IMG/VR virus record: IMGVR_UViG_3300032291_002550
Location: 436-64,435 of that record
DNA from: a virus
DNA: 64,000 bases
Reading direction: 5' to 3' (one strand)
In this document: positions 1,645 through 55,625 of the stretch, piece by piece
Position numbering within the stretch: position 1 is the first letter of the stretch
Layout: the number at the start of each line of letters is the position of its first letter
Program-made: the position numbers and the translations under genes
The notes under the pieces: model-generated
The model's database searches: none
The model's input: only the letters and a program-made list of their open reading frames with translations
What the model was told of the DNA's origin: nothing

Positions 1645-1650
1645 TAAGTT

Positions 1651-1761: not shown

Positions 1762-1811
1762 TTCTTTTCTTAGTTAGTTTTCTATGTAGCCATATATTTA
1801 TTTTAAAAGAA

Positions 1812-2816
1812 ATGTATACACAAGAACAAATAAATAAAGTATATGAGTTATTAACTGACACTAATAATTCTATTTGCGGATTAAGTAACTTAAATATAAT
1901 GAGGTATTTGGGTCATGATAGACCTAAAAAATCCGTAATTAAAAAATTATCTAATCAACTATTCTCGACATATAGTAAAGAATATATAATGGCTATTTGT
2001 AGATCTAAGCAAAGTCGTATAGCAAATACATCCAGAAATTCTAAACCTATACGATATTCAGATGCTTCTAAAAAGCGTATGAGTGAGTCAATGAAGAGAC
2101 GAAATAGTGAGATAAAAAACACTCCGGAAGGTGAGCGCATTTTTCAAATTAAACGTGATGCTATGCTTAAGACTCGTTCATATGGACTTCATTTAACTGA
2201 CGAAGCTATGAAAAAGAAATATCAAACACGTAAATCAAAGTCTGATAAATGGCATTCTGACGAAACTATTAAAAAAATGATATTATCTAATACGGGTCAA
2301 ACACGGAATGAAGTATCTAAGAAACGTATGTCAGATGCTAAAAAAGGTACTATACCATGGAATAAAGGTATTCCATGTAAAGATAGTACTAAAGAAAAGT
2401 TGTCTGATGCTATATCCTATCTTCATCAAATTGGTAATTATCCATTTAAAATTAAATCAAAGGGACATGCAGAAATTGAACAAATATTACTAGAACTTAA
2501 TTATGATGTAATATCTGAATTTAAATTAGGAAAATATTCATATGATCTTTATATTAAAGATATCTTACTAATAATAGAATTTCATGGAACATATTGGCAT
2601 TTAGACCCGAAGATATATAAAGAAGATTATTATGATAAATCAAAAAATCGATATGCAAAGGATCAATGGGATAGGGATGATATTAGAAAATGTCATGCTA
2701 CATCTGCTGGGTATAAATATTCAGTTATATGGCAATCAGAATGGGAAAGTATGACTACCCAAAATAAAATAAATAAACTTAAATCAATAATAGAAAATGG
2801 ATATAGAATACCTTAA
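1812..2816 (+). CDS. Homing endonuclease (HEG1): NUMOD3-like DNA-binding repeats plus a C-terminal PD-(D/E)xK (DUF559/Vsr-like) nuclease domain
   Basis: Tandem H-S-(D/E)-E-T-K-x-K-(I/M)-S-like repeats: KWHSDETIKKMILSNTG, SKKRMSESMKRRNS, SKKRMSDAKKGT. C-terminal YSYDLYIKDILLIIEFHGTYWHLDP...K matches the D-x(n)-E-x-H/K nuclease core. Inserted in the 5' region of rnh. Confidence 0.7.
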   Translation: MYTQEQINKVYELLTDTNNSICGLSNLNIMRYLGHDRPKKSVIKKLSNQLFSTYSKEYIMAICRSKQSRIANTSRNSKPIRYSDASKKRMSESMKRRNSEIKNTPEGERIFQIKRDAMLKTRSYGLHLTDEAMKKKYQTRKSKSDKWHSDETIKKMILSNTGQTRNEVSKKRMSDAKKGTIPWNKGIPCKDSTKEKLSDAISYLHQIGNYPFKIKSKGHAEIEQILLELNYDVISEFKLGKYSYDLYIKDILLIIEFHGTYWHLDPKIYKEDYYDKSKNRYAKDQWDRDDIRKCHATSAGYKYSVIWQSEWESMTTQNKINKLKSIIENGYRIP

Positions 2817-2893
2817 TAAATTATTCAAAGAAACCTTTGAATCTAACAATCAATCATTAACATTAGATGTTAATTCACGCCCCATGGTAATAG

Positions 2894-3856
2894 ATGGGAC
2901 GAATTTTTTTTTTAAGATGTTTTATGGCTAACCCCGTAATGAATGAAAACGGGGAGCATTTAGGCGGGTCTTTAGGATTCTTAAAGTCACTAGCTTCTTA
3001 TGTTAAAACATTCAAACCTACAAGAATTATTATTACGTTTGATGGTAAAGGAGGCTCTAAAAAAAGAAAAGAGTTATATCCTGAATATAAAGGTAATCGT
3101 TTAGCTCCTAAATCTTTTAACAGAGCTGAGATATTTGAAAATGCAGAAGATGAAAGTGCTTCAATGAAGCATCAGTTTGTAAGATTAATACAATACCTAC
3201 GTTGCTTACCGGTGTCGGTAATTACTGCAGATCATGTAGAAGCAGATGATATGGTAGCATATTTAACTACAGATATTCTTAATACAAAAAGTAATAATGT
3301 AATGATAGTTTCAGACGATAAAGATTATCTGCAACTTGTAAATGAGAAAGTTAATGTATATAGACCAGTAGAAAAGCGTTTATATAAATTAGAGGATGTT
3401 AAAGTAAGATTTGGGGTACCTGCAGAGAATTATCACCTCTATAAAGTATTTATTGGAGATGATGGCGATAATATACCCGGAGTGCCTGGAATCGGCCCTA
3501 AGACCGTAGGAAAATTGCCTATTTTACAAGAAAATAGAGTAGTTGGTTTAGAAGAATTTTTATCTTTTTGCGAAGATAAACAAGATGATAAATTATACAA
3601 AAAAATCATTAACAATAAAGACATTATAACACGTAATTATAAATTAATGCAACTACATAATGTAGATATATCAGGTACACATAAACTATTCTTAATTGAT
3701 AAGTTTAACGAACCTATATCGTTAATTAATAAAAATGAGTTTATACAAATATTAACTACTGATAAAGGATATAACTATATTAACGATCCTATTACATTTT
3801 TAAATATGTTTAATCAGTTAAATATATTTGCACTAGGAAATAATAATAATTCTTGA
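2894..3856 (+). CDS. rnh: RNase H / 5'-3' exonuclease (FEN family, T4 rnh-like). The true start is probably the ATG at 2884, which requires a frame change in a T10 tract
   Basis: IIITFDGKGGSKKRKELYPEYKGNR, the H3TH motif GDDGDNIPGVPGIGPKT, and acidic active-site residues. The ORF as called begins MGRIFFLRCF and lacks the conserved DG Asp. The upstream out-of-frame ATG at 2884 encodes MVIDGTNFFF*, which supplies it. Confidence 0.85.
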   Translation: MGRIFFLRCFMANPVMNENGEHLGGSLGFLKSLASYVKTFKPTRIIITFDGKGGSKKRKELYPEYKGNRLAPKSFNRAEIFENAEDESASMKHQFVRLIQYLRCLPVSVITADHVEADDMVAYLTTDILNTKSNNVMIVSDDKDYLQLVNEKVNVYRPVEKRLYKLEDVKVRFGVPAENYHLYKVFIGDDGDNIPGVPGIGPKTVGKLPILQENRVVGLEEFLSFCEDKQDDKLYKKIINNKDIITRNYKLMQLHNVDISGTHKLFLIDKFNEPISLINKNEFIQILTTDKGYNYINDPITFLNMFNQLNIFALGNNNNS

Positions 3857-3887
3857 TCTTTAGAAAAGTATATTATATATTAGGAAT

Positions 3888-5249
3888 ATGAGTCAAGATA
3901 GATTTACGCAGTACGGAAAAACCTTTCAATTAAAAATAATTGCAGCCCTTATAAAAGATAAAACATTTCTTCAACAAATATTCGATATTCTAATACCTGA
4001 ATATTTTGATTCTGAAGCTAATATTTGGATTGTAGATATTATCATGAAATACTTTCCAGAATATAAAACAGTACCTACATTAGAAGTATTTAAAGTAAAG
4101 GCGCTAGAACTTACATCTGAACCTTTAAAAATGTCTATCGTAGAATCTTTAAAAGATATATTAAGATATGTTGAAGCAGAAGATTTAGATTTTGTCAAAA
4201 CAGAATGTGTTAACTTTTGTAAAAATCAATGTATTAAAAAAGCTATTATCGAATCTGTTGAGTTATTACAATCAGGAGAATATGATAATATCAAAAAGAA
4301 AATTGATACTGCAATGAAAGCAGGAGCTAATCAAGATATTGGATTAGATTATTTAAAGGATGTTAAGCTTCGTTATGAAGAATCTGCTAGAATAACTTTA
4401 CCTACACCTTGGACTGCATTTAATGAATTGGTTGATGGCGGTATTGGTAAAGGAGAGCTTATTATATTTGTGGCAGGACCTGGTGCTGGTAAATCTACTT
4501 CGATGATTAATGTAGGAGCTCATTTATTAAGACAAGGAAAAACAGTAGTCCATTATACAATGGAATTATCAGAGCCCTATGTAGCTCAAAGATATGATTC
4601 AGTAGTTACTGGAATAGCAACAGCAAACTTAAAATATAACTTAGAAGAAGTTGAGCATGAATTATCAAAACTAAAAGGACAATTATATTTAAAGTTCTTT
4701 CCGACAAAAACAGCATCTGTAACGACATTAAAAGCTCATTTAGATAAAATGATAATGCAAGGAGTAAAACCTGATATTGTTATTGTAGATTATGCAGATT
4801 TATTACGTTCAGCAAAAGCAAAAGAAAAACTTCATGAAGAATTAGAAACTACATATGAAGATTTAAGAGGATTAGCCGGAGAATATCAAATACCAGTTGT
4901 TACGGCATCTCAAGCAAATAGATCTTCTGTAGAATCTGATATTATTACATCAGATCAAGTAGCTTCTTCATTTAGTAAGATTATGATTGGAGATGTTATT
5001 ATTTCATTAGCAAGAAAAACAACAGATAAGATTGCAGGTACAGGAAGAGTGCATTTTATTAAGAATCGTTTCGGGCCAGATGGATTAACATTACCAACTA
5101 AACTTAATATGTCAAATGGTAGAATTGATATGTATCAAGAATCATCTGTTAAAGGAAGAGAAACAAAAACAGAGATGGATGAAGATTCAGTAACACGAAA
5201 ATCTTTAGCTACAAAATATTCAGAACTTCTAGGAAATTCTCTAGGATAA
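3888..5249 (+). CDS. Replicative DNA helicase (DnaB / T4 gp41 family)
   Basis: Walker A IIFVAGPGAGKSTSM, RecA-like core, 453 aa, and a position next to the replication genes. Confidence 0.75.
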   Translation: MSQDRFTQYGKTFQLKIIAALIKDKTFLQQIFDILIPEYFDSEANIWIVDIIMKYFPEYKTVPTLEVFKVKALELTSEPLKMSIVESLKDILRYVEAEDLDFVKTECVNFCKNQCIKKAIIESVELLQSGEYDNIKKKIDTAMKAGANQDIGLDYLKDVKLRYEESARITLPTPWTAFNELVDGGIGKGELIIFVAGPGAGKSTSMINVGAHLLRQGKTVVHYTMELSEPYVAQRYDSVVTGIATANLKYNLEEVEHELSKLKGQLYLKFFPTKTASVTTLKAHLDKMIMQGVKPDIVIVDYADLLRSAKAKEKLHEELETTYEDLRGLAGEYQIPVVTASQANRSSVESDIITSDQVASSFSKIMIGDVIISLARKTTDKIAGTGRVHFIKNRFGPDGLTLPTKLNMSNGRIDMYQESSVKGRETKTEMDEDSVTRKSLATKYSELLGNSLG

Positions 5250-28471: not shown

Positions 28472-28506
28472 TACTGAATATCAATACATTAAAATTATAA
28501 TAAAAT

Positions 28507-28550
28507 TTGGAAATATGAAATGTATTCCTTATCTTTAAGTATATTAAAAA
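28507..28550 (+). promoter_or_regulatory. Conserved intergenic element, copy 2
   Basis: ttggaaatatgaaatgtattccttatctttaagtatattaaaaaa. Mini-ORF MKCIPYL*. Confidence 0.6.
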
Positions 28551-28862: not shown

Positions 28863-29540
28863 ATGAAAAGAACATTATATTCGCGCGCGACCACAGGAAA
28901 GGTTTTAGAATGGACTATTGAAGTCGAATCTAATAAATATCGTACAATATCCGGTTATATAGACGGAGTAAAAACAACATCAGAATGGACTGTTTGCGAG
29001 CCTAAAAATATAGGAAGAGCAAATGCTACGACAGCAGAAGAACAAGCTATTAATGAATCAACAGCTATTCATCGTAAGAAAATGGAAAAGGGCGCATTTG
29101 AAAATATTAATGATATTGATACACCTATTTATTTCGAGCCAATGTTAGCTGCTAAATGGGAAGATTATAAAAATAAAATAGCATTTCCAGCATATTCTCA
29201 ACCGAAGTTAGATGGCTGTTTAAGTTATGATACGTTAATTAATACTGATAAAGGTAAGTTGATGATCGGAGATATTATTAATAATAATATCGATTGTTTA
29301 GTAGATACATATAATACCAATACCAATTTAATTGAACGTAAGAAAATTTTAAATAGAATGAAAAATGGTATTGATATTAATGAACAGCAACAAACTCAAT
29401 GGTATGAAATCGAAGTGGAAGATGGTCGAAAAATTAAAATTACCGGCAACCATCGAGTATATCTTCCGAAGTTACGGTGTTGGAGACGAGTAGATGAGTT
29501 AAATGAAAATGATATATTATTAAACTATTTTAAAAAATAA
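28863..29540 (+). CDS. lig: ATP-dependent DNA ligase, N-terminal fragment (N-extein through motif I KLDG) fused to the N-terminal half of a split intein
   Basis: Motif I PKLDG is followed directly by intein block A CLSYDTLI and block B ITGNHRVY. The ORF terminates after the intein-N region. Confidence 0.8.
   Translation: MKRTLYSRATTGKVLEWTIEVESNKYRTISGYIDGVKTTSEWTVCEPKNIGRANATTAEEQAINESTAIHRKKMEKGAFENINDIDTPIYFEPMLAAKWEDYKNKIAFPAYSQPKLDGCLSYDTLINTDKGKLMIGDIINNNIDCLVDTYNTNTNLIERKKILNRMKNGIDINEQQQTQWYEIEVEDGRKIKITGNHRVYLPKLRCWRRVDELNENDILLNYFKK
29217..29537 (+). mobile_element. Split intein N-terminal half (IntN, ~107 aa)
   Basis: Starts with Cys (CLSYDT) immediately after the ligase KLDG. 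Contains the TxxH block B (TGNH). Confidence 0.75.
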
Positions 29541-29589
29541 CCATCAACTTTTTGGTGTAATATAATAATTATAATAAATAAAGATTTAT

Positions 29590-30504
29590 ATGACACCTAT
29601 AGAAAAGTTACAACAGATAGAACTGAATACAGCAATTTTAAATTACCACGGTAATGATCATACAAGAAGAAAGTACATACGTGATATTATTACTGCTGAA
29701 TTACTTAAGTATTTAGTAATTGATAAAAAATATCCATCTAATTACATCGGAACATTGATTTCTGATATCATCGGTATACGAATAGATGCAGGATATATAA
29801 TTCATAGATGTAAAGAATTAAATATTAAAACATTTTCAATTAAAGAATCTGCTAACTTAAAATCAACAAAAGTAAGAAAGGCAGAAACATGTATAAAGAA
29901 ATATGGGTCATCAAATCCGTTAGGAAAACAAAGCCCGATATATAAAAAGCGCAATCAAACAGTCCAAGAAAAGTATGGTGTATCAAATGTATTTCAACTA
30001 GACTCTGTTAAAATGAAAACAAAAGATACGATGATAAAAAAGTATGGTGTATCAAATCCAGTATATATGGAAAACTATAAACGAAATTGTGGGCGTCGTA
30101 GTAAAATACATACTACAATAGAAACTCTCTTAATTGACTTAAATATACAATTTGAATCAGAAAAAAGAAATATGTTTTCTGCATTTAATAAATACTATAA
30201 TAAAATATATTCGCCTCAAGTAGACATCCTATTGAATGATTATAATATAGTAATAGAAATAAATGGAGATTTATGGCACGCAAATCCTAAAAAATATAAA
30301 GCAACTGACTTAATACCATTACGAATTGGACAGACTGAAGCCCAGATAATTTGGGCACGTGATGCTGCCAGAACAGAACAAATTAAATCATTCGGCTTCG
30401 AAGTAATTGAATTATGGGAGCATGATATTAAAACTAACTTAAGTATAATAAAAGAACAGTTATATGAAAAAATATATAAAAATAACAAAAATTACGAAGA
30501 TTGA
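29590..30504 (+). CDS. Homing endonuclease (HEG2) between the split-intein halves: KYGVSN repeats plus a C-terminal PD-(D/E)xK nuclease
   Basis: Repeats KKYGSSNP / EKYGVSNV / KKYGVSNP. C-terminal DILLNDYNIVIEINGDLWHANP resembles the nuclease core of HEG1 and HEG3. The 3' end overlaps the IntC ORF. Confidence 0.7.
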   Translation: MTPIEKLQQIELNTAILNYHGNDHTRRKYIRDIITAELLKYLVIDKKYPSNYIGTLISDIIGIRIDAGYIIHRCKELNIKTFSIKESANLKSTKVRKAETCIKKYGSSNPLGKQSPIYKKRNQTVQEKYGVSNVFQLDSVKMKTKDTMIKKYGVSNPVYMENYKRNCGRRSKIHTTIETLLIDLNIQFESEKRNMFSAFNKYYNKIYSPQVDILLNDYNIVIEINGDLWHANPKKYKATDLIPLRIGQTEAQIIWARDAARTEQIKSFGFEVIELWEHDIKTNLSIIKEQLYEKIYKNNKNYED

Positions 30505-30577
30505 TCCTGAAGTTAAATATGATCTTGAAATACAAGATAACCACAACTATTTTGCAAACGATATACTAGTGCATAAT
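30464..30577 (+). mobile_element. Split intein C-terminal half (IntC, 38 aa)
   Basis: Ends in block G NDILVHN, followed by the Cys+1 of the extein. Confidence 0.75.
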
Positions 30578-31315
30578 TGTCGTGCCATTGTTAAGAGTGA
30601 CGGTATGTGGACACGAAATGGTAAGCCTATTATATCTGCTCCGCATATATTTGAATGTCTTAAGCCGTTATTTGAAATTAATCCAGATCTTATTTTTGAC
30701 GGGGAACTTTATGCTGATAAATTTGCTAACGATTTTAATGCTATATGTTCATTAGTAAAGAAAACTAAACCAACAGCCGAAGATATTAACGAATCAAAGG
30801 AAAAGATTCAGTATCATGTATATGATTTACCGAGCTTTAATGCCACATTTGTTCCAAGATTCCAACATCTTCATAAAATGCTTACAAATTATCACCCGTC
30901 TATTGTTGTTGTACAAACAGAACAAGTAGACAATTTTAATGATGTAGATGCGTTCTACGAAGATTATATTTCTTTGGGATATGAAGGTCAAATGATACGA
31001 TTAGACGCTCAATATGAACATAAAAGAACAAAGTCTTTATTAAAGAATAAGTCCTTTATAGATGAAGAATATACGATCATTGATATTGAAGAAGGTAATG
31101 GAAACAAAGCCGGAATGGTAGGTTCTTTTGTATTTAAGAATGCTAATGGCAAAATATTCAATGCTTCTCCTAAGTTTAACTGGGGCATATGCCAACGAAT
31201 GTTAAACGATAGAGAATTATTAATCGGAAAAGAAGCTACGATTAAGTATTTTAATTTAACACCAGATAATATACCTAGATTTCCGTACGTAATAGCGATA
31301 CGAGATTACGAATAA
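30464..31315 (+). CDS. lig: Split intein C-terminal half fused to the DNA ligase C-terminal fragment (C-extein)
   Basis: After ...ILVHN, the extein CRAIVKSDG completes motif I KxDGxR. It is followed by motif III LIFDGELYA, motif IV EGQMIRLD and motif V LLKNKS. Confidence 0.8.
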   Translation: MKKYIKITKITKIDPEVKYDLEIQDNHNYFANDILVHNCRAIVKSDGMWTRNGKPIISAPHIFECLKPLFEINPDLIFDGELYADKFANDFNAICSLVKKTKPTAEDINESKEKIQYHVYDLPSFNATFVPRFQHLHKMLTNYHPSIVVVQTEQVDNFNDVDAFYEDYISLGYEGQMIRLDAQYEHKRTKSLLKNKSFIDEEYTIIDIEEGNGNKAGMVGSFVFKNANGKIFNASPKFNWGICQRMLNDRELLIGKEATIKYFNLTPDNIPRFPYVIAIRDYE

Positions 31316-31332
31316 AAAAACTTAAAAAAAGA

Positions 31333-31378
31333 TTAGGAAATATGAAATGTTTTCCTTATCTTTAAGTATATTAAAAAT
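31333..31378 (+). promoter_or_regulatory. Conserved intergenic element, copy 3
   Basis: ttaggaaatatgaaatgttttccttatctttaagtatattaaaaatt. Confidence 0.6.
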
Positions 31379-32440: not shown

Positions 32441-32513
32441 ACTCAGATGGCGTAATTGGTAACGCGCCCGTCCTGGAGATGGGAAGATATAGGTTCGAAT
32501 CCTATTCTGAGTT
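32441..32513 (+). tRNA. tRNA (73 nt). Anticodon loop CCUGGAG, so Pro(UGG) in the canonical register, but position 33 is C
   Basis: Hand-folded. Acceptor actcaga/tctgagt, D-stem gcgt/acgc, anticodon stem cccgt/atggg, T-arm atagg-ttcgaat-cctat. No encoded CCA. Confidence 0.6.
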
Positions 32514-32547
32514 CAAAAAAAAAATAACTTGCAAGTTATTTTAAATA

Positions 32548-32668
32548 GTCAGGTGGCGGAAAGGTATTAGTAGTGGTGAACGAAAATATCGTGGTAGACG
32601 CTAGTTAACAGACAGAGAGATAAAAGGAATGGTTTACTCTCATACAGGTTCGAATCCTGTCCTGACTA
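32548..32668 (+). ncRNA. Atypical tRNA-like element (121 nt) with a canonical acceptor stem and T-arm but a non-tRNA interior
   Basis: Acceptor agtcagg/cctgact and T-arm acagg-ttcgaat-cctgt are perfect. I could not fold the ~85-nt interior into D or anticodon arms. Confidence 0.35.
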
Positions 32669-32682
32669 CTAAAAAGAAAGTT

Positions 32683-32838
32683 ATGTCATCAGAAACAAAA
32701 AAAAGAAAGTCAGATAAAAAATTACATTGGGGTCGAGGTAGACATTTCATGAAATGGGTAGGTAAGGGCATAAAAGGACTTACTTATTTTACATCGTCTC
32801 AAAGACGAATAAATAATAAAATTGACTTAGAAGATTAA
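32683..32838 (+). CDS. Small basic protein (51 aa). Track ORF 32629..32838 trimmed to the aagttATG start
   Basis: MSSETKKRKSDKKLHWGRGRHF..., preceded by the conserved aagttATG context. The N-terminal part of the track ORF overlaps the tRNA-like element. Confidence 0.3.
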   Translation: MSSETKKRKSDKKLHWGRGRHFMKWVGKGIKGLTYFTSSQRRINNKIDLED

Positions 32839-32843
32839 AATAT

Positions 32844-32935
32844 AGTCAGGGGGTAATATAGGCAGCTACCCATCCGGAGTGGGGTGAGTTAAGAAGTGGG
32901 TTTCTTAAATGCAGGTTCGAATCCTGCCCTGACTG
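32844..32935 (+). ncRNA. Atypical tRNA-like element (92 nt), paralogous to the 32548..32668 element
   Basis: Same acceptor agtcagg/cctgact, and T-arm gcagg-ttcgaat-cctgc. The interior holds a 7-bp hairpin ttaagaa-gtgggt-ttcttaa and a possible tccggag loop, but no clean cloverleaf. Confidence 0.35.
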
Positions 32936-32949
32936 CAAAAATTAAAAGT

Positions 32950-33525
32950 ATGAAAGTAATATTCTTAGATATAGACGGCGTTCTTAATTGTCAAGATGCA
33001 TATCATAATAATGAATGTAAATATGTTGATTTTACATTAAATGATGTTGAAGACTTTTATCAGACATTTTGTTCTTGGAGTAAAATGTGGTTGAATAAAT
33101 TAATTGATGAGACTGGAGCTAAAATAGTAATATCTTCTACTTGGAGACATTCAGGTATTGATTTCATGAAAAAAGTTTGGGAATTAGAAGAAATGAGTGG
33201 CGAGATAATTGGGTTGACTCCTCACTTAAAAAGAGCCGATAACTATACTATACCTCGTGGATGTGAAATTGATTTTTACTTAAACAATACATTAAACTTT
33301 AGCCATATCAATTGGGATAAAACTATACAACAAGAATATATGTATAAATCAGGTATTGAAAACTATATTATAATTGATGATGATTCTGATATGTTGTATG
33401 GTCAAAGACATCATTTTATAAATGTATTACCTTCTCCAAGAAACACAAAAGGATTTAATGAAGAACATTATAAACTTGGAATGGAGATGTTAAGTAAAAC
33501 AGTAATTGATTTAAATTATGAATAA
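32950..33525 (+). CDS. HAD-superfamily hydrolase (nucleotidase-like). Start corrected from the track ORF
   Basis: HAD motif I FLDIDGVLN and ISSTWR. The track ORF's N-terminus overlaps the tRNA-like element. The ATG at 32950 has an aaagtATG context. Confidence 0.6.
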   Translation: MKVIFLDIDGVLNCQDAYHNNECKYVDFTLNDVEDFYQTFCSWSKMWLNKLIDETGAKIVISSTWRHSGIDFMKKVWELEEMSGEIIGLTPHLKRADNYTIPRGCEIDFYLNNTLNFSHINWDKTIQQEYMYKSGIENYIIIDDDSDMLYGQRHHFINVLPSPRNTKGFNEEHYKLGMEMLSKTVIDLNYE

Positions 33526-33925
33526 AGAATTTATCCCTTACGAAGAAGCATTAGCTTTAAAAGAATTAGGATTTGACGAACCTTGTTTTGGATATTTTTA
33601 TCATGAAAATATGTTTACAAAATGTCATCCAAATATTTACCACTCTAATACATTTACAGAATGTGATACGTATGAAGAAATACCACTAGATTCATGTAAA
33701 ACACCACTATATCAACAAGCATTTAGATGGTTTAGAAAGAAACATGGATTAAGTTCTTATGTGAGACTCATAAACTTGCAAGGCAAATCTTATTGGAAGA
33801 TTGATAAAGTCGAAACGGAAGATAAAATTAAAGGATATTCTTCTTTTGAAAATAGTTACGAAGGATCGGAGCTAGAATGTCTTAAAAAATTAATAGAGTT
33901 AATAACAATAAAAAATAATGAATAA
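33518..33925 (+). CDS. Hypothetical protein, tandem paralogue A
   Basis: MNKEFIPYEEALALKELGFDEPCFGYF...LECLKKLIELI, near-identical in layout to the next ORF. Confidence 0.5.
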   Translation: MNKEFIPYEEALALKELGFDEPCFGYFYHENMFTKCHPNIYHSNTFTECDTYEEIPLDSCKTPLYQQAFRWFRKKHGLSSYVRLINLQGKSYWKIDKVETEDKIKGYSSFENSYEGSELECLKKLIELITIKNNE

Positions 33926-34349
33926 AGAATTTGTACCATATGAACAAGCACTGGCTTTAAGAGATTTAGGATTTGACGAACCTTGTCTAGGGTATTTTGA
34001 TATACAATATAACGGTATTACTCAATCAAGTAGCGGTCGTTTAATTTTAGGTAAAGACCCCGATACATTGCAATGTACTAAAAAAATGCTATATATTCAT
34101 GGACAATTAAAAATTCTAGCGCCGACATATTCACAAGCATTTAAATGGGTTAAAGATAAGTATAGTTTATTCCACGAAATACAGATAGATAGGACAGCTG
34201 AGCCTAAATATTGGAATAATATATTCAAATATGAACATTTTGGAAATTATGAAGAACTTAGAGTAGGAGAATGGTTCTTACACAGAACTCAAGAAGACGC
34301 AGAGTTAGATTGTCTTAAAAAATTAATAGAAATAGTAAAAACAAAATAA
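33918..34349 (+). CDS. Hypothetical protein, tandem paralogue A'
   Basis: MNKEFVPYEQALALRDLGFDEPCLGYF...LDCLKKLIEIV. Confidence 0.5.
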   Translation: MNKEFVPYEQALALRDLGFDEPCLGYFDIQYNGITQSSSGRLILGKDPDTLQCTKKMLYIHGQLKILAPTYSQAFKWVKDKYSLFHEIQIDRTAEPKYWNNIFKYEHFGNYEELRVGEWFLHRTQEDAELDCLKKLIEIVKTK

Positions 34350-34350
34350 T

Positions 34351-34941
34351 ATGAAAGTAATATTCTTAGATAATGATGGCGTAATATGCCTAGCCCATAA
34401 TTGGGGTTCTAGATATAAAAAACGTGTTGCGGCAGATCGTAATCCGCACATGGATAGTAATTTACAAAATGTCGAATATCGTTTTGATAATTTTGATACT
34501 AAAGCAATTGAAGTATTAAATGAAATCTTAAAAAAGACTGATGCAGAAATAGTTGTTAGTTCTGATTGGAGATTACATGCAACCTTAGAGGAATTAGGTA
34601 AATATTACCTGTCTCAAGGTATTATTAAAGCGCCTATTGCTATTACTTCGAGGACTGAAGATATAGACCCCGGAGCATGGAATTTACTAAGATATAGAGC
34701 AGATCTGGAGCTAGAACGTTCGATTGAAATACTAGATTGGCTAGATAAACATCCTGAGGTAACGAATTGGGTTGCAGTTGATGATTTAAATATGTCCGTT
34801 AACTATTTATCAGGACTTTTTTCTAATAAAGATGAGTTAGATAAAAAGCCCGGATTGACAAATTTCGTTCATACTAAAAAATCTAGTGAAGGAATAAAAC
34901 AAGTGGGCATTAAGGATAAAATATTAAATTATTTGATATGA
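34351..34941 (+). CDS. HAD-superfamily hydrolase, paralogue of 32950..33525
   Basis: MKVIFLDNDGVI and SSDWR. Confidence 0.6.
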   Translation: MKVIFLDNDGVICLAHNWGSRYKKRVAADRNPHMDSNLQNVEYRFDNFDTKAIEVLNEILKKTDAEIVVSSDWRLHATLEELGKYYLSQGIIKAPIAITSRTEDIDPGAWNLLRYRADLELERSIEILDWLDKHPEVTNWVAVDDLNMSVNYLSGLFSNKDELDKKPGLTNFVHTKKSSEGIKQVGIKDKILNYLI

Positions 34942-36225: not shown

Positions 36226-36723
36226 ATGAATAACGAACAACAAGAATTATTGGGTGATGCTTATGAAAATTGGTGTAAACAATTTGAAGTTGACCCGAAT
36301 AATTTTAATGGCGAAGAATTAGCGAATGGGCATAACGACCAATGCTGGGGTTATCCAATATTAGACCATGTTAAGCCTACATCAAAAGAATATAAAAGAG
36401 GACAAATAAATGCTTATTTAGAGGGTAAAGCCGAACAACCTTTTTTCTATTTAACACAAGAAGAATTTATCAACAAATGTAAAAACGATACAGAGTTCTC
36501 TGAAAGGTGGGGATTACAGATTGAAGAACGAGAGTTGAGTTTGGATGAAAGAGTTCATATTTTTAACTCAAAAATGATTAAGGAAGAAATTAGAACTCAA
36601 ATAGCAACGATTGGTATAGATAAGAGTTATTGGAAAAAATCATTAGAAGTAACTAAACATAATATACCAACACGCGCGGTCACAATAACATACAAAGATA
36701 AAAGTATAGAAAGTTATGAGTAA
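36226..36723 (+). CDS. Modular hypothetical protein containing peptide modules A and B that are also inserted into thymidylate synthase
   Basis: LTQEEFINKCKNDTEFSERWG (module A) then RELSLDER...NIPTRA (module B). Both recur in ORF 37330..38559 with ~80% DNA identity at the module ends. Confidence 0.5.
   Translation: MNNEQQELLGDAYENWCKQFEVDPNNFNGEELANGHNDQCWGYPILDHVKPTSKEYKRGQINAYLEGKAEQPFFYLTQEEFINKCKNDTEFSERWGLQIEERELSLDERVHIFNSKMIKEEIRTQIATIGIDKSYWKKSLEVTKHNIPTRAVTITYKDKSIESYE
36451..36513 (+). repeat. Module A, copy 0 (DNA repeat; the other copy is 37639..37701)
   Basis: ttaacacaagaagaatttatcaacaaatgtaaaaacgat... versus ttaacacaagaagaattcatcaacaaaatcaaaaccgat... Confidence 0.6.
36529..36678 (+). 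repeat. Module B, copy 0 (the other copies are 37951..38094 and 38287..38424)
   Basis: Conserved termini cgagagttgagtttggatgaaag ... aatataccaacacgcgcg. Confidence 0.6.
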
Positions 36724-36967
36724 AGTATATGTTAGATGGAATCCATTATATGAAAGAGTGGTATGTGTTCATTCGTCAGATGAATTAGAATGTGAAAAGT
36801 GCATTGAAGAACGAGAAAAAATAAAAAATACCCCATATACATTAAATGGTAAGTGGTTTGAAATTGATAGTAATAATAACCTATGTTATTGTGGAGATCC
36901 TGTTGATATGACTAATCCAGATTGTGTGGAATATAATTTATGTAAAGAACATTCAATGGATGTTTAA
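36716..36967 (+). CDS. Small Cys-rich protein
   Basis: 83 aa with CxxC-like pairs (CEKC, CYCG, C..C). Confidence 0.4.
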   Translation: MSKVYVRWNPLYERVVCVHSSDELECEKCIEEREKIKNTPYTLNGKWFEIDSNNNLCYCGDPVDMTNPDCVEYNLCKEHSMDV

Positions 36968-36994
36968 AATAAAAGAAAGTTATGAGTAAATAAA

Positions 36995-37291
36995 ATGAAT
37001 AATATACATAACGATTTAAATCATGTCTTAAATAAAGGTAATGGTATTGCATTAATTGTATCTATGGTAGAATGTCCTAAATGTGCTAAAGATATATGGT
37101 TAGAAATGGGAAGTCATTGTGGTTTTGACGCTAATTTAGATTTCGCAATTGACAATTATTGTTATGAGTGTTTTGAACCCATTAAATGTGTCTTTGACAT
37201 TGATGATATTAAAGACACCGGGTTTATCACTATATCAGATTATGGGAGTTTTACATCTAATAATTTTATAACAAATAAAAGTAAATTATGA
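36995..37291 (+). CDS. Small Cys-rich protein
   Basis: 98 aa with CPKC, CYEC. Confidence 0.4.
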   Translation: MNNIHNDLNHVLNKGNGIALIVSMVECPKCAKDIWLEMGSHCGFDANLDFAIDNYCYECFEPIKCVFDIDDIKDTGFITISDYGSFTSNNFITNKSKL

Positions 37292-37329
37292 GTGAAGAAA
37301 TAAAAGAAATATATTATAAAAAATAAAAG

Positions 37330-50698: not shown

Positions 50699-51274
50699 AT
50701 GAGTAATATTATTAAACTATCAAAACTTCTAACTGAAATATTAAATGAATTCGGAGACCTTAAAGGGATTGACCCCGTTAAATGGCAACGAGTATCTGAT
50801 AGATATTTATTTCAAGTAGATAATAATAAAGTAGAGTGTATGTTTCAACCATGGACTCATCAAGAATTAATAGATGTTATTATTCCTTCTGTTGATAATG
50901 AAGTATTTCAAGATACAGTTATAAAAAAACGATCAATAATATTAAATAGTTATAATTTATCATATACAGTTAATGGTCAAACAGATCAAGCAAAGAAAAC
51001 AGATGTTCATACATTTCTTGTTATAATAAGTACTATAGTAAGTATCGTAAAAGATTTTATTGAAACTAATAATCCATTTATTCTTACTATTATTAGTGCA
51101 TCAAAGTTTGGAGGTATATCTAATGATAAACAAAAAGATTTGATATATAGAGAAATTTCAAGACAACATCTTCCGAGTAATTATTACTTAAGAGATATTC
51201 ATATAAAAGAAATGTTGAATGGTAATGAACCAGTTAAAAATTTAAAAGGATTGATCTTGTTTAAAAGAAAATAA
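50699..51274 (+). CDS. Hypothetical protein
   Basis: 191-aa ORF. Confidence 0.45.
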   Translation: MSNIIKLSKLLTEILNEFGDLKGIDPVKWQRVSDRYLFQVDNNKVECMFQPWTHQELIDVIIPSVDNEVFQDTVIKKRSIILNSYNLSYTVNGQTDQAKKTDVHTFLVIISTIVSIVKDFIETNNPFILTIISASKFGGISNDKQKDLIYREISRQHLPSNYYLRDIHIKEMLNGNEPVKNLKGLILFKRK

Positions 51275-51315
51275 TTCATTATATTCAATTATAAAATAAA
51301 AATTAAAAATAAGTT

Positions 51316-51363
51316 ATGAAGAAAAAGAAAATTCTTTTCCTGTGTGATGACCCCAGATTTTAA
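51316..51363 (+). pseudogene. Mini-ORF (15 aa) mimicking the N-terminus of the glycosyltransferase downstream of HEG3: direct-repeat copy 1
   Basis: MKKKKILFLCDDPRF*, preceded by aagttATG. It recurs as ...EKKKILFLCDDP* at 52437-52511 and resembles MAREIILGTCHVF of ORF 52542. Confidence 0.4.
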
Positions 51364-51399
51364 TTTCCGACGATCCGAGATATTTATATTAAATATCGT

Positions 51400-52425
51400 A
51401 TGGAATCATCAAATAATTTTATCAAATGTGCTATATGCGATTCATTAATGCAGTCAAGAATTAATGGGTCGCACTTAAAAACACATAACATATCTATAAC
51501 AGAATATTTGATTAAGTATCCGTTTGCAGAAACGGGGTCTTATATATCATCAACTTTTAAATGTCAGATCTGTAACACTGATATTGAAAATAAAAGTTCA
51601 GTTAAGATAAAACATTTAAAAGATCATGGTTATTCTATAGATGAATATAATATACAGTACTTAAAACGTCTTTGCCAATGTGGATGTAATGGCATAGCAA
51701 CATATTCATATGCTAGACATAAGTATAACAAGTATATTGAAGGTCATGACATCACATCATGGAATACCGGATTAACTAAAGAAACACATGACTCTTTAAA
51801 GAGGGTATCAGAAGCTAGAAAAAGAACAAAAGGTACATATACAGATGAACAAAAATTAAAAATCTCTGAGAAAACTAAATTATCATGGAAAGAACATCCA
51901 GAATCTAAATTAAAGATGGTGAAATCTTATAAAGAGACTATGATTAAAAAATATGGAGTAGATAATTTTAGTAAAACACCAGAATTTCTAGAAAAGTTTA
52001 AAAATACATCTTTAAACCGATATGGAGTAGAATATCCTAATCAAGACCCTGAAATATATGAACGTTCATGTAAAGGCAGAAAATATTATAAAGATTATAT
52101 ATTACCATCAGGTAAAAAGATACGAATTCAAGGATATGAGGGATATGCTTTAGATATACTATTAAATTCATATCATGAAGATGATATATTAACAAAAAAA
52201 TCTGATATGCCAATAGTATGGTATGAATTTGAAAATAAAAGGCGCAGATATTACCCAGATATTTACATACCATCACAAAATCTAATAATTGAAGTTAAAT
52301 CTACATACACATATAATTTAGAGACTGCTCAGATACATTCTAAAATAAACTCTTTGAAAGATATGGGATTTAATACTAATATTTGGATTATCGATAAAAA
52401 AATAATATATTCAATTATAAAATAA
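51400..52425 (+). CDS. Homing endonuclease (HEG3): zinc-finger-like N-terminus, KYGVxN repeats and a C-terminal PD-(D/E)xK nuclease
   Basis: CAICD...HLKTH and CQICN...HLKDH pairs. Repeats KKYGVDNFSKTPEF / NRYGVEYPNQDPE like HEG2. C-terminal YYPDIYIPSQNLIIEVKSTY (PD...EVK). Confidence 0.65.
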   Translation: MESSNNFIKCAICDSLMQSRINGSHLKTHNISITEYLIKYPFAETGSYISSTFKCQICNTDIENKSSVKIKHLKDHGYSIDEYNIQYLKRLCQCGCNGIATYSYARHKYNKYIEGHDITSWNTGLTKETHDSLKRVSEARKRTKGTYTDEQKLKISEKTKLSWKEHPESKLKMVKSYKETMIKKYGVDNFSKTPEFLEKFKNTSLNRYGVEYPNQDPEIYERSCKGRKYYKDYILPSGKKIRIQGYEGYALDILLNSYHEDDILTKKSDMPIVWYEFENKRRRYYPDIYIPSQNLIIEVKSTYTYNLETAQIHSKINSLKDMGFNTNIWIIDKKIIYSIIK

Positions 52426-52436
52426 AATAAGTTACA

Positions 52437-52511
52437 ATGTTAAACAATTTAAACAGTAATGGTCGTCACTCGGAGAAGAAGAAGATTCTTTTCTTATGTG
52501 ACGACCCGTAA
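52437..52511 (+). pseudogene. Mini-ORF (24 aa), direct-repeat copy 2 of the glycosyltransferase N-terminus mimic; contains a long hairpin
   Basis: MLNNLNSNGRHSEKKKILFLCDDP*. DNA ggtcgtcac...gtgacgacc is a 9-bp inverted repeat enclosing gaagaagaag/cttttctt. Confidence 0.4.
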
Positions 52512-52541
52512 AAACCTAGATTTTCTAGTGGGATTGCCACG

Positions 52542-53867
52542 ATGGCAAGAGAAATTATCCTAGGCACTTGTCATGTATTTGATTATGTGATTGTCGGTGG
52601 CGCATTAAAACATCCAGAAGAAGGTCAAATAATTGACTTATCTCAATCAGTTAAGAAAGATACTGGTATTGATGCTAATGTTAAAATTTATCCTGTATCT
52701 GGTTATGGTACTCAAGAATTAGTACGTCATTTAATCTCTACAGAATCTCCGGATGTATTATTACATTTTACAGACCCTAGATATTGGACATGGTTGTATC
52801 AAATGGAAAATGAAATACGTCAAAGAATTCCAATTACTTACTTAAATATTTGGGACTGTCCACCACCCCCAATGTATAATAAACCTTATTATAAATCATG
52901 TGATTTATTAATGAATATTTCGAAGCAAACTTACGGAATTGTTCATAAGGTATTAGAAGGAGAAAATTATGAAGATTGGCAAATTACCTATGTTCCGCAC
53001 GGAATAAACGACTCACATTTCTTTCCAATATCAAAAGACTCAGACACATATAAAAGTGTCGTAGACTTAAGAAAATCATTCTTAAAGGGTAAGAAAAATA
53101 AAGATGTAATTCCTCAATTTGTATTTTTATTTAATTCTAGAAACATAAGAAGAAAACAAACAGCAGATATTATATTAGCATATAAAATGTTCTGCGATAA
53201 ACTTTCGAAATCAGAAGCAATGAAATGCGTTCTTGTTCTTCATACTCAACCAGTTGATGAAAATGGAACAAACTTATTAGAGGTTATTGAAACTTTATGT
53301 CCAGAATATAACGTTACTTTTACAGATAAATCATTTAATGTTCATGAAATGAATATACTTTATAACTCTTCAGATGTTTTAATTAATATTTCAAGTAATG
53401 AAGGATGGGGATTATCTGTAACAGAAGCTATAATGACTGGTAAAAATGTTATCGTAAATATGACTGGCGGTCTTCAAGATCAAGTTGGATTAATGAAAGA
53501 CGATGGCACATTAGTTACTAAAGAAGATTATAAAGATAAAGAATGGCATTCAAATCATGATGGAAGATATAACAAATGGGGTTCTTGGGCAATACCAATT
53601 ATTCCGAGCAATCGTTCTATTCAAGGGTCTATTCCAACTCCTTATATATTTGACGATCGTGTAAAGATTGAAGACTTAATGAATGCTATGCTGAAATGGT
53701 ATAATACTAATGAAGAAGAAAGAATTCATTCAGGAATAAAAGGTCGTCAATATCTTATTGATAACAGAATGAATGCAAAAGGAATGTGTGAGAATGTTAT
53801 AAAAGACATTACAACTTGCTTAGAAAATTTCGAGCCTAAAGAAAGATATTCAATTATTAAATTATAA
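52542..53867 (+). CDS. Glycosyltransferase (GT-B, GT4-like)
   Basis: C-terminal NISSNEGWGLSVTEAIMTGKNVIV matches the GT-B E-x7-E / EGFGL-type motif. 441 aa. Confidence 0.65.
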   Translation: MAREIILGTCHVFDYVIVGGALKHPEEGQIIDLSQSVKKDTGIDANVKIYPVSGYGTQELVRHLISTESPDVLLHFTDPRYWTWLYQMENEIRQRIPITYLNIWDCPPPPMYNKPYYKSCDLLMNISKQTYGIVHKVLEGENYEDWQITYVPHGINDSHFFPISKDSDTYKSVVDLRKSFLKGKKNKDVIPQFVFLFNSRNIRRKQTADIILAYKMFCDKLSKSEAMKCVLVLHTQPVDENGTNLLEVIETLCPEYNVTFTDKSFNVHEMNILYNSSDVLINISSNEGWGLSVTEAIMTGKNVIVNMTGGLQDQVGLMKDDGTLVTKEDYKDKEWHSNHDGRYNKWGSWAIPIIPSNRSIQGSIPTPYIFDDRVKIEDLMNAMLKWYNTNEEERIHSGIKGRQYLIDNRMNAKGMCENVIKDITTCLENFEPKERYSIIKL

Positions 53868-54302: not shown

Positions 54303-55625
54303 ATGAAAAAGACAGTCGTGCTTCAGGCATCGGTAGCTACGGCAAGTGGCTACGGTGCTAGATCTAGAGATATAGCAAAGGCTCTTATTGAAAATCCGGA
54401 TTATGATGTAAAAATTATCCCTACGAGATGGGGAGATACTCCGCAGAATTTCTTAAACGAGCAAGACCCCATTCATAAAGAAATTCTTAAGAGAATGGTA
54501 AAGCAAGGAGAACAGCTTCAACAACCAGATACATATATTCAAATTACAGTACCAAATGAATTTCAAAAGGTAGGTTTACGTAAGTCTATAGGTATTACTG
54601 CTGGAATGGAAACTACATTAGTAGACCCGTCATGGTTAGAAGGTAATAATCGTATGGACCAAGTACTTTGTTCTTCAAAGCATTCTGCGGATGTAATGAA
54701 ATCAAGTAAGTATGATAAGATGGACCAAAATACCCGTCAAAAAGTTGGAGAACTTACCACAGAAAAAGAAGTAGATGTATTGTTTGAAGGAATAGATTTT
54801 AATACTTATCGTAAAGTAGATTCAATTCATAAGTCTATTAATGATATTATGAATGAAATAAACAATAAGTTTTGTTTCTTAGTGGTTGGTCATTGGTTAC
54901 CTGGTCAAATGTGGGAAGATAGAAAAAATATCGGAGGTACTATTTATACATTCTTAGATACATTTAAGAATAAACAAAATGCTCCAGCATTATTACTTAA
55001 GATAAGTTGCGGAAGTTATTCTGAAATGGATCGTTTTGAAATATCTAAACGCGTTAATCAAATTAAAAAGATGTTTGATGATACAGCAACAAGATTACCA
55101 GATGTTTATTTAGTTCACGGAGATTTTACAGATGATGAAATGAATTCATTATATAATCATCCTAAAGTAAAAGCAATGATATCTATGACTAAAGGAGAAG
55201 GATTCGGAAGACCGTTAGCAGAATTTGCTATGACAGGTAAACCAATTATTGTTTCTCATTATTCTGGTCATAAAGATTTTCTTCCTCAAGAAATGGTAAT
55301 GTATATTCCAGGTGAAATGCGTAATGTACATTCTTCAGCAGTCGTTCAAAATATGATTCTTCCAGAGTCGCAATGGTTCATGCCAAACCCGATGGTAGCA
55401 GGAAGATATATGATTGATACATTTGAAGATTATAAATCTAAACTAGAGGTTTCAAGAAAGCTACCTAAATACTTAAAAGATAACTTCTCATATGAAAAGA
55501 TGAAAGAAAATCTTTATAAGTTTATTGATGCTCCAGTTAAGGAAATACAAAAGCCTCAGATGCAGCAAATTAAATTGCCATCACTTAAAAAAATCGAACT
55601 ACCTAAAATAAAAAAAGTAGAATAA
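54303..55625 (+). CDS. Glycosyltransferase (GT-B, GT4-like)
   Basis: SMTKGEGFGRPLAEFAMTGKPIIVS motif. 440 aa. Confidence 0.65.
   Translation: MKKTVVLQASVATASGYGARSRDIAKALIENPDYDVKIIPTRWGDTPQNFLNEQDPIHKEILKRMVKQGEQLQQPDTYIQITVPNEFQKVGLRKSIGITAGMETTLVDPSWLEGNNRMDQVLCSSKHSADVMKSSKYDKMDQNTRQKVGELTTEKEVDVLFEGIDFNTYRKVDSIHKSINDIMNEINNKFCFLVVGHWLPGQMWEDRKNIGGTIYTFLDTFKNKQNAPALLLKISCGSYSEMDRFEISKRVNQIKKMFDDTATRLPDVYLVHGDFTDDEMNSLYNHPKVKAMISMTKGEGFGRPLAEFAMTGKPIIVSHYSGHKDFLPQEMVMYIPGEMRNVHSSAVVQNMILPESQWFMPNPMVAGRYMIDTFEDYKSKLEVSRKLPKYLKDNFSYEKMKENLYKFIDAPVKEIQKPQMQQIKLPSLKKIELPKIKKVE

Follow-up and report, generated by a model that had tools for sequence, protein, structure and literature searches.

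Layout of the HEG3 locus

We analyzed a 64,000-nucleotide stretch of viral DNA (positions 436 to 64,435 of IMG/VR record IMGVR_UViG_3300032291_002550), which we will term the window. It carries a homing endonuclease gene (HEG), HEG3, as a 341-amino-acid open reading frame (ORF), followed by a 441-amino-acid ORF (52542..53867) whose product is a GT4 glycosyltransferase (GT) with a Glycos_transf_1 domain (Table 1). Our subject is HEG3, the 5′ end of the GT gene, and a 9-nt insert that breaks the GT reading frame between them. Misassembly does not account for this layout, as an independent assembly (L007) is 100% identical over 6 kb.

The best protein match to the GT is from Flavobacterium phage vB_FspM_immuto (48%). 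Homologues of the GT are 456-471 amino acids long and have the N-terminus MKKKKILFLCDDPRFSSGIATMAREIIL, which implies that the 52542 ORF begins at Met22 of the normal protein. A first-pass annotation of this DNA had taken 52542 as the real start of the GT gene and had described three diverged copies of that start, one upstream and two downstream of HEG3. This reading does not hold. The second copy (52437..52511) and the "further homologous stretch" behind it form a single frame, which reads MLNNLNSNGRHSEKKKILFLCDDP, then TAA AAA CCT, then RFSSGIATMAREI, and runs on into the 52542 ORF; only those 9 nt break it. Because the two segments reproduce the normal N-terminus, the start at 52542 is an artefact of ORF calling. 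Also, one homologue (P0007) has the same N-terminal extension joined to the rest of the protein without interruption, so the second and third "copies" are a single gene start broken by 9 nt.

Table 1. Features of the HEG3/GT locus and the tRNA gene discussed in the text (coordinates are those of the window)
Feature	Position	Strand	Remarks
Upstream resident gene, 191 amino acids, function unassigned	50699..51274	+	Gene order of HEG-less L003-L006
Resident intergenic DNA 5′ of the GT start; possible promoter or translation start region; upstream arm of repeat D1	51267..51315	+	
Orphan 5′ end of the resident GT allele, MKKKKILFLCDDPRF, then stop	51316..51363	+	Codons 1-15 of the L003/P0001-type gene, then stop
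AGATTTT, 7-bp target duplication	51357..51363 and 52518-52524	+	Flanks the entire 1.15-kb insert
Cassette left end and HEG 5′ leader, ..CGACGATCCGAGATATTTATATTAAA..	51364..51399	+	Common to L008/L009, there partly coding
HEG3, 341-amino-acid free-standing homing endonuclease	51400..52425	+	Pfam DUF7487
Cassette-borne copy of the GT upstream intergenic DNA; downstream arm of repeat D1	52393..52436	+	Overlaps the last HEG codons
Cassette-borne replacement GT 5′ end: N-terminal extension MLNNLNSNGRHSE and KKKILFLCDDP (strand beta-1)	52437..52508	+	
Two-tier hairpin	52461..52506	+	Outer stem GGTCGTCAC / GTGACGACC, inner stem GGAGAAGAA / TTCTTTTCT
9-nt insert TAA AAA CCT, between invariant DD(P) and R	52509..52517	+	Stop, one codon, proposed landing codon CCT (52515-52517)
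Rest of the GT gene (RFSSGIATMAREIIL...)	52518..53867	+	
Phage tRNA-Pro, anticodon UGG	32441..32514	+	

The same annotation reported that direct repeats bracket HEG3, and this is correct: 51267-51301 matches 52393-52427 (83%) and 51320-51353 matches 52474-52507 (85%). In a gapped local alignment, the flanks score 69, as compared to 20.9 ± 3.5 for shuffles (maximum 37). Aligning 51313-51390 with 52460-52545, a pair for which a lack of significant identity would have refuted the annotation, gives 29/34 identities and a score of 43 (shuffles 13.7 ± 2.4), which none of 2,000 shuffles reached.

The interruption is not a group I intron. With a cutoff of E ≤ 10, Rfam gave no relevant match in 51000-53000, either to a group I intron or to any other known RNA; the non-ORF sequence amounts to just 36 nt and about 90 nt; and every candidate splice boundary fails to combine a U at −1 with a terminal G.

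Relatives with and without the endonuclease

In HEG-less relatives (L003-L006), the 191-amino-acid gene is followed by a 44-nt spacer and an intact 462-amino-acid GT. Two other contigs (L008 and L009) have a diverged endonuclease (about 71% amino acid identity) at the same place, and a HEG-less contig (L092) is about 98% identical to L008 on both flanks. So, presence or absence of the endonuclease is polymorphic at one site, both between L008 and L092 and between the window and L003-L006.

The two copies of the GT start come from different alleles. In a multiple alignment, every upstream copy belongs to the resident type: the window's resembles L003, and those of L008 and L009 resemble L092, a match that includes unrelated intergenic DNA and an MTNTKKPK start. 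The window, L008, and L009 share one foreign type of downstream copy, and it brings along the foreign intergenic DNA that overlaps the last HEG codons (52393..52436), which is present in L008 and L009 although their resident intergenic DNA is unrelated. Thus, the same cassette 5′ end and intergenic DNA are found in two backgrounds, one with a 191-amino-acid upstream gene and one with a 145-amino-acid gene. Also, the L008 and L009 endonucleases differ from each other by more than the two backbones do, so that HEG divergence is discordant with backbone divergence. The occurrence of the same element in different backgrounds indicates horizontal spread.

These comparisons indicate that a mobile cassette of about 1.15 kb (51364..52517) sits after codon 15, in the 5′ end of the GT4 gene. 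Resident upstream DNA and codons 1-15 are left 5′ of the cassette as an orphan, and this is the upstream repeat of the first-pass annotation; the orphan (51316..51363) is the upstream arm of a second repeat, D2, and contains the left cassette junction. As judged from the alleles that we compared, the mobile unit comprises the HEG leader, the HEG, the upstream region, the N-terminal extension, the replacement beta1 codons, and the short insert, and it sits after about codon 15-18 of the resident GT gene with a 7-12-bp duplication (10-12 bp in L008 and L009). We are highly confident of this anatomy and of our reading of the repeats.

The first-pass annotation had viewed the copies as "decoy" N-termini, made by an insertion mechanism that duplicates the 5′ end of the target gene and serving for immunity to cleavage, for continued translation of the downstream gene, or both. 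The upstream copy is instead the stranded start of the resident gene, matching the HEG-less allele of the same background, and the downstream copy is functional coding sequence that travels with the HEG into unrelated backgrounds with its peptide conserved. The different origins of the copies (resident vs. imported) mean that there was no local duplication, which largely refutes that model. Furthermore, two HEG-linked alleles (L013 and L093) have the extension, the insert, and the hairpin but no orphan copy, so duplication is not required; theirs is the layout of a free-standing HEG upstream of its target. In the model's favor, bracketing repeats recur in L025 (200 nt, about 95% identical), in L041, and at HEG1/rnh in the window, where the annotation had correctly seen the same layout (it is also apparent at the protein level). 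However, such repeats are not a general property of DUF7487 HEGs, as only 2 of 51 distant loci had them and the other 49 did not. Overall, we consider duplication by the insertion mechanism, with decoys that confer immunity, to be very improbable. What stands is that the layout is tied to invasion by the endonuclease and to continued expression of the downstream gene; immunity would most plausibly come from the insert between DD(P/L) and R.

Rather than a dedicated duplicating mechanism, a repair scar fits these data better. The orphan, and hence the direct repeats, seem best explained by one-sided (illegitimate) repair of a double-strand break: in the window lineage, repair probably used homology on the GT side but joined the upstream side illegitimately. 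In L008, about 18 nt past the interruption are also of the donor type.

The resident intergenic DNA (51267..51315) may contain a promoter. The intergenic motif ATTATAAAATAAA was rejected as a phage-wide promoter, as it is not enriched in the window (8 matches vs. 4.6 expected). The HEG leader (51364..51399) weakly resembles the 3′ end of the 191-amino-acid gene (LRDIHIKEM, p about 0.002-0.03), which is suggestive only. The same leader was rejected as a decayed third copy of GT codons 16-28: 918 of 1,000 and 627 of 1,000 shuffles scored at least as high.

Finally, L001 and L002, which carry the P0007 allele, have an intact HEG-less GT with a cassette-type extension (MLDNLSKNGLHEKKKK...) and neither the insert nor the outer stem of the hairpin. 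Upstream of this GT is a remnant of the last codons of the 191-amino-acid gene. These contigs carry the allele from which the extension came or else a "hit-and-run" revertant.

The interrupted site and its variants

The insert lies in the beta1-alpha1 loop of the GT, according to a confident structure model (pLDDT 89). D22, D23, R25, S28, and G29 are invariant in 24 GT sequences, and DDxR is contiguous in 116 of 120 homologues. By this model, the 441-amino-acid ORF would lack beta1, the beta1-alpha1 loop, and the first turn of alpha1. As beta-1 and the loop are encoded solely by the separate 52437..52508 ORF, the GT is complete only if both parts are joined or assembled. This ORF closes with CCG (52506-52508), which we propose as a take-off codon. 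Among the homologues, three appeared truncated (P0062, P0104, and P0115): two cases are trivial (start-codon choice and a contig edge) and the third is a new interrupted variant, L186.

We collected all of the interrupted alleles that we could reach and found ten distinct variants at this one site (Table 2). A stop codon (TAA, TAG, or TGA) comes right after the take-off codon in nine of them, the exception being L186 with its 35-nt gap. In eight, a landing codon that matches the take-off codon in the first two bases adjoins the Arg resume codon on its 5′ side. These matched pairs represent four codon families and three amino acids (Pro/Pro, Leu/Leu, and Ile/Ile), and the matched residue is the one found at that position in the clade's intact proteins. 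The gaps between the matched codons are 3, 3, 5, 6, 6, 10, 10, and 35 nt and include all three frames. A scan of a genome collection for the motif found one chance match, in a Blautia metagenome-assembled genome.

Table 2. Ten variants of the insert
Alleles	Take-off codon	Gap	Landing codon	Resume codon	Remarks
Window	CCG	TAAAAA	CCT	AGA	
L008/L009	CCG	TGACA	none	AGA	GTG start overlaps TGA
L013/L096/L176/L183	CTT	TGA	CTC	AGA	
L093-L095	CTG	TAGCGG	CTG	CGT	
L177	CTG	TGAAAAGTCA	CTA	AGA	
L180/L182	CTG	TGAAAAGTCG	CTG	AGA	
L179	TTG	TAA	TTG	AGA	
L178	TTG	TAATG	none	AGA	ATG overlaps TAA
L181	CTT	TGAGG	CTA	CGA	
L186	ATT	35 nt with 10-bp GC stem-loop	ATC	AGA	

One way to translate through such an insert would be for the stop codon to be read, by readthrough or by a suppressor tRNA. 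In the window, this would give ...DDP-X-K-P-RF..., with three extra residues. The inserts are in frame in the window, L013, L093, and L179 (6 or 9 nt), and three of those four stops precede C or T. But the frame is shifted in four of the matched-codon variants (by 8, 13, 13, and 38 nt, with gaps of 5, 10, 10, and 35 nt), so readthrough cannot be the general mechanism. Also, all three stop codons are used across the variants, we found no suppressor tRNA in the window, and readthrough would place 2-3 residues between the invariant DD and R. Readthrough is thus hardly credible.

A hairpin at the proposed take-off codon

The hairpin that the first-pass annotation drew around the downstream copy is real. 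Its outer stem pairs 52461-52469 with 52498-52506 and its inner stem pairs 52472-52480 with 52486-52494; the energy is −24.4 kcal/mol for the hairpin alone, and z = −3.8 in a context of 111-135 nt. The 3′ arm reaches as far as the take-off codon, of which it includes only the first base. A two-tier hairpin is present in every one of the ten variants (−18 to −29 kcal/mol), as compared to −12.8 kcal/mol in the intact HEG-less L001. In every case, the (C/S)-D-D-x codons supply the 3′ arm, which terminates inside the take-off codon, and the 5′ arm lies in the N-terminal extension. Indeed, the extension appears to exist to encode the 5′ arm.

The arms differ by clade with their complementarity kept: GGTCGTCAC pairs with GTGACGACC, CAAATCGTCAC with GTGACGATTTG, and AGATCATCTGA with TCAGATGATCT; further complementary arms are GGTCGTCAGATAA / TTATCTGACGACC and AATATCATCACA / TGTGATGATATT. 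In an alignment that was anchored on the arms, 81% of cells were paired, vs. at most 45% with slid partners, and none of 500 shuffles reached the observed score. Five pairs show changes on both sides. Three flanking pairs that lie outside the anchoring are paired in 23 of 24 cells, with compensatory changes. The decisive covariation comes from the more distant clades; between the window and L008/L009 alone, conservation of the hairpin is modestly above the local background of 85-90%. A take-off stem-loop within the gap was present only in L186 (10 bp, GC).

A proposed translational hop

Because the insert lies between invariant residues of an essential loop, we propose that the ribosome makes a short hop over it. 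The site has signals of the kind associated with bypassing, namely a stop codon right behind the take-off codon, a landing codon that matches the latter and adjoins the resume codon, a structured 5′ element, and an invariant motif that is exactly restored. In the window, peptidyl-tRNA-Pro would leave CCG while UAA is in the A site and would re-pair with CCU (52515-52517). Decoding would then resume at AGA to give ...CDDP-RFSSG... within a 473-amino-acid product, with the junction peptide ...LFLCDDPRFSSGIAT.... The conserved hairpin at the take-off codon could refold behind the ribosome and so bias its movement forward. The phage's own tRNA-Pro(UGG) could, by standard wobble rules, read both CCG and CCU; that it is part of the hop system is speculative. 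For the window's GT, we lean slightly, if at all, toward a hop.

Several points weigh against this proposal. First, we infer the hop from comparative sequence only, and the same is true of the cleavage site of the endonuclease (below). Second, the variants are related and thus are not ten independent events, and the matched codons could derive in part from a 2-3-nt duplication when the insert arose or from gene conversion by resident alleles. Third, gaps of 3-10 nt are too short to hold an A-site take-off stem-loop like that of phage T4 gene 60, so in that respect the window resembles a stop-hop instead; and Weiss and colleagues reportedly found, in 1987, that spontaneous stop-hops in E. coli are inefficient. 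Fourth, anchoring the hairpin alignment on the complement of the DD hexamer leans the result toward structure, and two of its pairs are paired by construction. Finally, L008/L009 (CCG TGA CA AGA) and L178 (TTG TAA TG AGA) lack a matching landing codon, and in both a start codon overlaps the stop (GTGA and TAATG), which makes termination-reinitiation a workable alternative.

Under that alternative, the GT would be a split gene: a 24-amino-acid N-terminal peptide (beta-strand 1) and a C-terminal protein made by termination-reinitiation (in the window, from the ATG at 52542) would assemble non-covalently, and no hop would occur. The overlaps in L008/L009, where reinitiation would give MTRFSSGIATMAREV, and in L178, where it would give M-RMHSG, are classic arrangements for coupling. 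Purifying selection on the replacement peptide (below) would also be expected if it acts in trans, split phage enzymes made by HEG insertion can be active (Aeh1 NrdA and phage 25 gp43; PMC2988022), and this GT family is also split mid-gene in other contigs. However, the next in-frame start would drop R25 in most variants: it lies after this invariant residue in the window, L013, L093, and L181, and it lies after S28 and G29 in the window and L186, so those residues would be in neither piece. Both of the coupling-type variants retain R25, which suggests that it is needed. A split gene also leaves unexplained the matched flanking codons (8/10 variants), the stop right after the DDx codon (9/10), and the hairpin that tracks the take-off codon. 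And the DNA 5′ of the ATG at 52542 is not A/T-rich, unlike other gene starts in the window. We view a split gene as possible but unlikely.

Selection on the interrupted alleles

The bodies of the interrupted alleles are intact, with 440-450 codons and ratios of nonsynonymous to synonymous substitution (dN/dS) of 0.05-0.15. The cassette peptide KKILLLSDDL is identical in four clades even though 6-9 of its 10 codons differ synonymously, which points to purifying selection on the cassette-borne N-terminal peptide and indicates that the downstream copy is translated and functional. Also, L177, L180/L182, L181, and L186 have lost the endonuclease, of which the last ~100 nt are left, yet they keep the extension, the hairpin, the insert, and an intact GT body.

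These observations bear on another possibility, which is that the GT has been inactivated. In this case, the GT would be dispensable, the insert would be a scar of imprecise repair at the cut site that is kept for protection, and the repeats, the hairpin, and the matched codons would have no role in decoding. A paralogous GT 0.4 kb downstream might compensate, and short direct repeats around an insert can be a mutational signature. Furthermore, the near-identity of the flanks of L008 to those of HEG-less L092 (about 98%) implies a recent invasion, so decay may not yet show: we saw no relaxation of dN/dS after invasion, in a test whose power is limited because the invasions are recent relative to backbone divergence. 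But inactivation would not account for the conserved bodies, for a peptide that is maintained despite saturated synonymous change, for compensatory changes in the hairpin across clades, or for inserts that outlive the HEG beside an intact GT body. Random filler, with a chance of 3/64 each, would also not be expected to place a stop after DDx in nine of the ten variants. Inactivation of the GT is therefore improbable.

The paralogous GT4-like gene (54303-55625, 440 amino acids, intact start MKKTVVLQASVATASGYGARSRD) is kept in all of the related contigs and could buffer loss of the first GT. Separately, the interrupted GT family is split around residues 161-170 into two ORFs in L180 (2229-3944), L182 (8031-9773), L179/L117, L098, and L105. 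In L180 and L182, the two ORFs are about 340-390 nt apart, and the spacer contains small ORFs, one of which is rich in zinc-finger-like cysteines; this spacer could be what is left of another endonuclease insertion. A new Met begins the C-terminal part (MNEKNKVVLSYIPHG and MPFKINNQFVNKHLLHYVPHG).

The endonuclease and a proposed immunity

HEG3 matches Pfam DUF7487 (E = 5e-45). Its sequence features a pair of C2H2-like zinc fingers and helical YGV(D/E)N repeats, with a PD-(D/E)xK nuclease domain at the C-terminus; residues E247, D287, E298, and K300 of this domain do not vary across 10 relatives. We therefore predict that HEG3, as a member of a family that contains homing endonucleases and with its catalytic residues intact, is a nuclease. 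Its best protein match is a Vibrio phage "HJR family nuclease". We found no close DNA relatives of the window among cultured phages, and a literature search found no paper on DUF7487 or on bypassing in a glycosyltransferase.

The interruption is always at the same place (all of the interrupted alleles are broken between DDx and R), and the orphan copies stop 7-12 nt beyond it. This suggests that HEG3 cleaves alleles without the HEG within or close to the DD(P/L)-R codons and that the 9-nt insert splits the target and so protects the carrier genome. If so, the cut should fall near the junction of GACGACCC and CAGATTT, in the intact allele only, and TAAAAACCT alone, placed in the intact allele, should abolish cutting. 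On balance, we favor an insert that both destroys the endonuclease's target, which would confer immunity, and is decoded by a short translational hop.

Other loci

The HEG1/rnh locus (1650-3856; HEG1 at 1812..2816 and an rnh-like ORF at 2894..3856) has the same architecture as HEG3/GT. Upstream of HEG1 is an orphan, MLNRFVELLAEIQQEKESPVSLNINSRVMLVDGTNF followed by a stop, which is identical to the first 36 amino acids of intact homologues (P0241). Downstream of HEG1 is a diverged replacement start, MDIEYLNKLFKETFESNNQSLTLDVNSRPMVIDGTNFF, and then a run of ten Ts; a run of nine would be in frame and would give ...TNFFLRCFMANP. So, rnh is broken by one additional nucleotide exactly where the orphan ends; either slippage during transcription or a slip of +1 along the U run would bring it back into frame.

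In L025, a 200-nt duplication (2264-2465 and 3887-4095, about 95% identical) surrounds a distant DUF7487 endonuclease (456 amino acids). It comprises an upstream region (a putative promoter) and the first 51 codons of the downstream gene, which encodes a 225-amino-acid membrane protein and is intact. The copies differ by a 2-nt indel and substitutions at the very end of the duplication.

Elsewhere in the window (28863-31315), a gene similar to ATP-dependent DNA ligases is broken by an intein-like element. The first ORF (28863..29540) runs from the KLDG motif into CLSYDTLI..., and the last (30464..31315) has ...ILVHN and then CRAIV. Between them is a 304-amino-acid HEG-like ORF (29590..30504) with KKYGxSN repeats and IEINGDLWH. 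The interrupted ligase resembles a "fractured gene" or a split intein with a free-standing endonuclease. A 60-nt direct repeat (28491-28550 and 31318-31377, 90% identical), which has a small hairpin and an ATG inside, surrounds a 107-amino-acid ORF and the interrupted ligase.

Within the region 32441-32946, which begins with tRNA-Pro, there is a 92-nt tRNA-like sequence (32844-32935) whose anticodon region is aberrant (ARAGORN "anticodon ag") and whose Rfam score of 25 bits is below threshold, and a third T-arm-like repeat near 32642-32679 has no tRNA call. Two pairs of tandem paralogues occupy 32896-34941: ORFs 33518..33925 and 33918..34349 are 78-84% identical over stretches of 43-89 nt, including the first ~85 nt, and they are bracketed by ORFs that start with MKVIFLDIDGV (32951) and MKVIFLDNDGV (34351). 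Finally, the motif AAAGAAAGTTATGAGTAAA occurs three times in 36699-37301, with a spacing of about 270-300 nt. In one copy, ATG AGT AAA TAA comes right before the ATG of ORF 36995..37291, and the copies may be duplicated gene starts.

Implications

To our knowledge, T4 gene 60 is essentially the only model for efficient programmed bypassing in bacteria or phages. The variants described here form a graded natural series, in which gaps of 3-35 nt share a single site and come with matched codons and an upstream (5′) hairpin that co-varies. With such a series, simple reporters could directly reveal what gap length, the stop codon, tRNA identity, and upstream structure each contribute. There might also be a general rule: where the target codons are too conserved to mutate, immunity could come from an insert that the ribosome or the polymerase ignores. 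The T10 frameshift in rnh, beside HEG1, points to the same rule. For annotation, gene callers report N-terminally truncated GT ORFs (441-456 amino acids) and miss the small upstream ORF, and it may often be recoding, and not gene death, that explains "broken" genes beside endonucleases in phage metagenomes.

Comparison with known systems

The locus shares some features with genes in pieces such as Aeh1 nrdA/mobE and phage 25 gene 43 (PMC2988022, PMC3045599), where an HEG lies inside a conserved coding region and the two ORFs possibly still form an active enzyme; the overlapping stop and start codons of L008/L009 and L178 add to the likeness. It differs in that the N-terminal piece would be only about 24 amino acids (one beta-strand), and restarting would lose invariant residues in most variants.

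As in intronless homing in T4, the endonuclease gene adjoins the gene that it targets, it would cut away from its own insertion point, and flanking markers are co-converted (here, the roughly 18 nt of donor type in L008). Where homology is missing on one flank, T4 homing is documented to involve one-sided illegitimate repair (Parker et al., 1999, as summarized in PMC2988022), and an illegitimate junction of this kind would explain the orphan copy and the 7-12-bp duplication. In contrast to T4, the junction here is within the coding sequence of the target.

The "byp" elements of Magnusiomyces capitatus mitochondria are GC-rich and mobile. Like the insert of L186, they are short (tens of nt) and GC-rich within an AT-rich gene, and they are tolerated because of bypassing between matched codons. 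They differ in that they occupy many sites in a eukaryotic organelle and have no known associated endonuclease, whereas the inserts described here are at one site and are tied to an HEG. These elements are mentioned in a review of recoding (PMC5009743).

The closest parallel is the MobA element of T4 gene 60, which combines the bypass with an N-terminal extension and a homologous replacement segment (Bonocora et al., 2011, as described in bioRxiv 10.1101/2022.08.31.505936). In T4, it is the bypass, and not point polymorphisms, that protects from cutting by MobA, and relatives keep the bypass after loss of the endonuclease (bioRxiv 10.1101/2022.08.31.505936); the 5′ stem-loops of gene 60 are thought to prevent backward movement as they refold (PMC6551183). 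In both systems, a free-standing HEG lies in a conserved region of the gene for an essential-type enzyme, and the element brings an N-terminal extension and a replacement copy of the displaced host codons. Both have a non-coding insert that follows a take-off codon and a stop, that breaks (here, would break) the endonuclease's target, and that ends in a matched landing codon by the resume codon. A stem-loop lies 5′ of take-off, the insert outlives the endonuclease, and near-isogenic genomes are found with and without the element. The differences are that the nuclease is a PD-(D/E)xK enzyme of DUF7487 here and HNH in T4; the target is a GT4 glycosyltransferase rather than the large subunit of topoisomerase II; the gaps are 3-35 nt (with a 9-nt shift in the window) rather than 50 nt, and the short ones lack an A-site stem-loop; and take-off is from Pro, Leu, or Ile instead of Gly (GGA). 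Also, the displaced host 5′ end is kept as an orphan in the window and is deleted in T4, and bypassing here is a proposal. An HEG with an immunizing, bypassed non-coding insert is known from this one element, and the nuclease, the target, and the gap architecture all differ here.

Shorter counterparts of bypassing have long been expected by specialists, and natural in-frame stop-hops are listed as unknown in a review (PMC5009743). In synthetic stop-hops in E. coli, matched codons surround a stop and a single amino acid is specified by 9 nt (Weiss et al., 1987, as described in PMC5009743). L013 (CUU UGA CUC) and L179 (UUG UAA UUG) have exactly this form, and the window (CCG UAA AAA CCU) is longer by one codon. 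Whereas those sites were engineered, the motif here is natural and has a conserved hairpin upstream. We regard it as evenly balanced whether these cassettes are a second, independently evolved family of HEG-linked bypass elements and include the first natural stop-hops, with HEG1/rnh as a sister case that relies on slippage. If they are, then this locus supplies the missing natural short hops.

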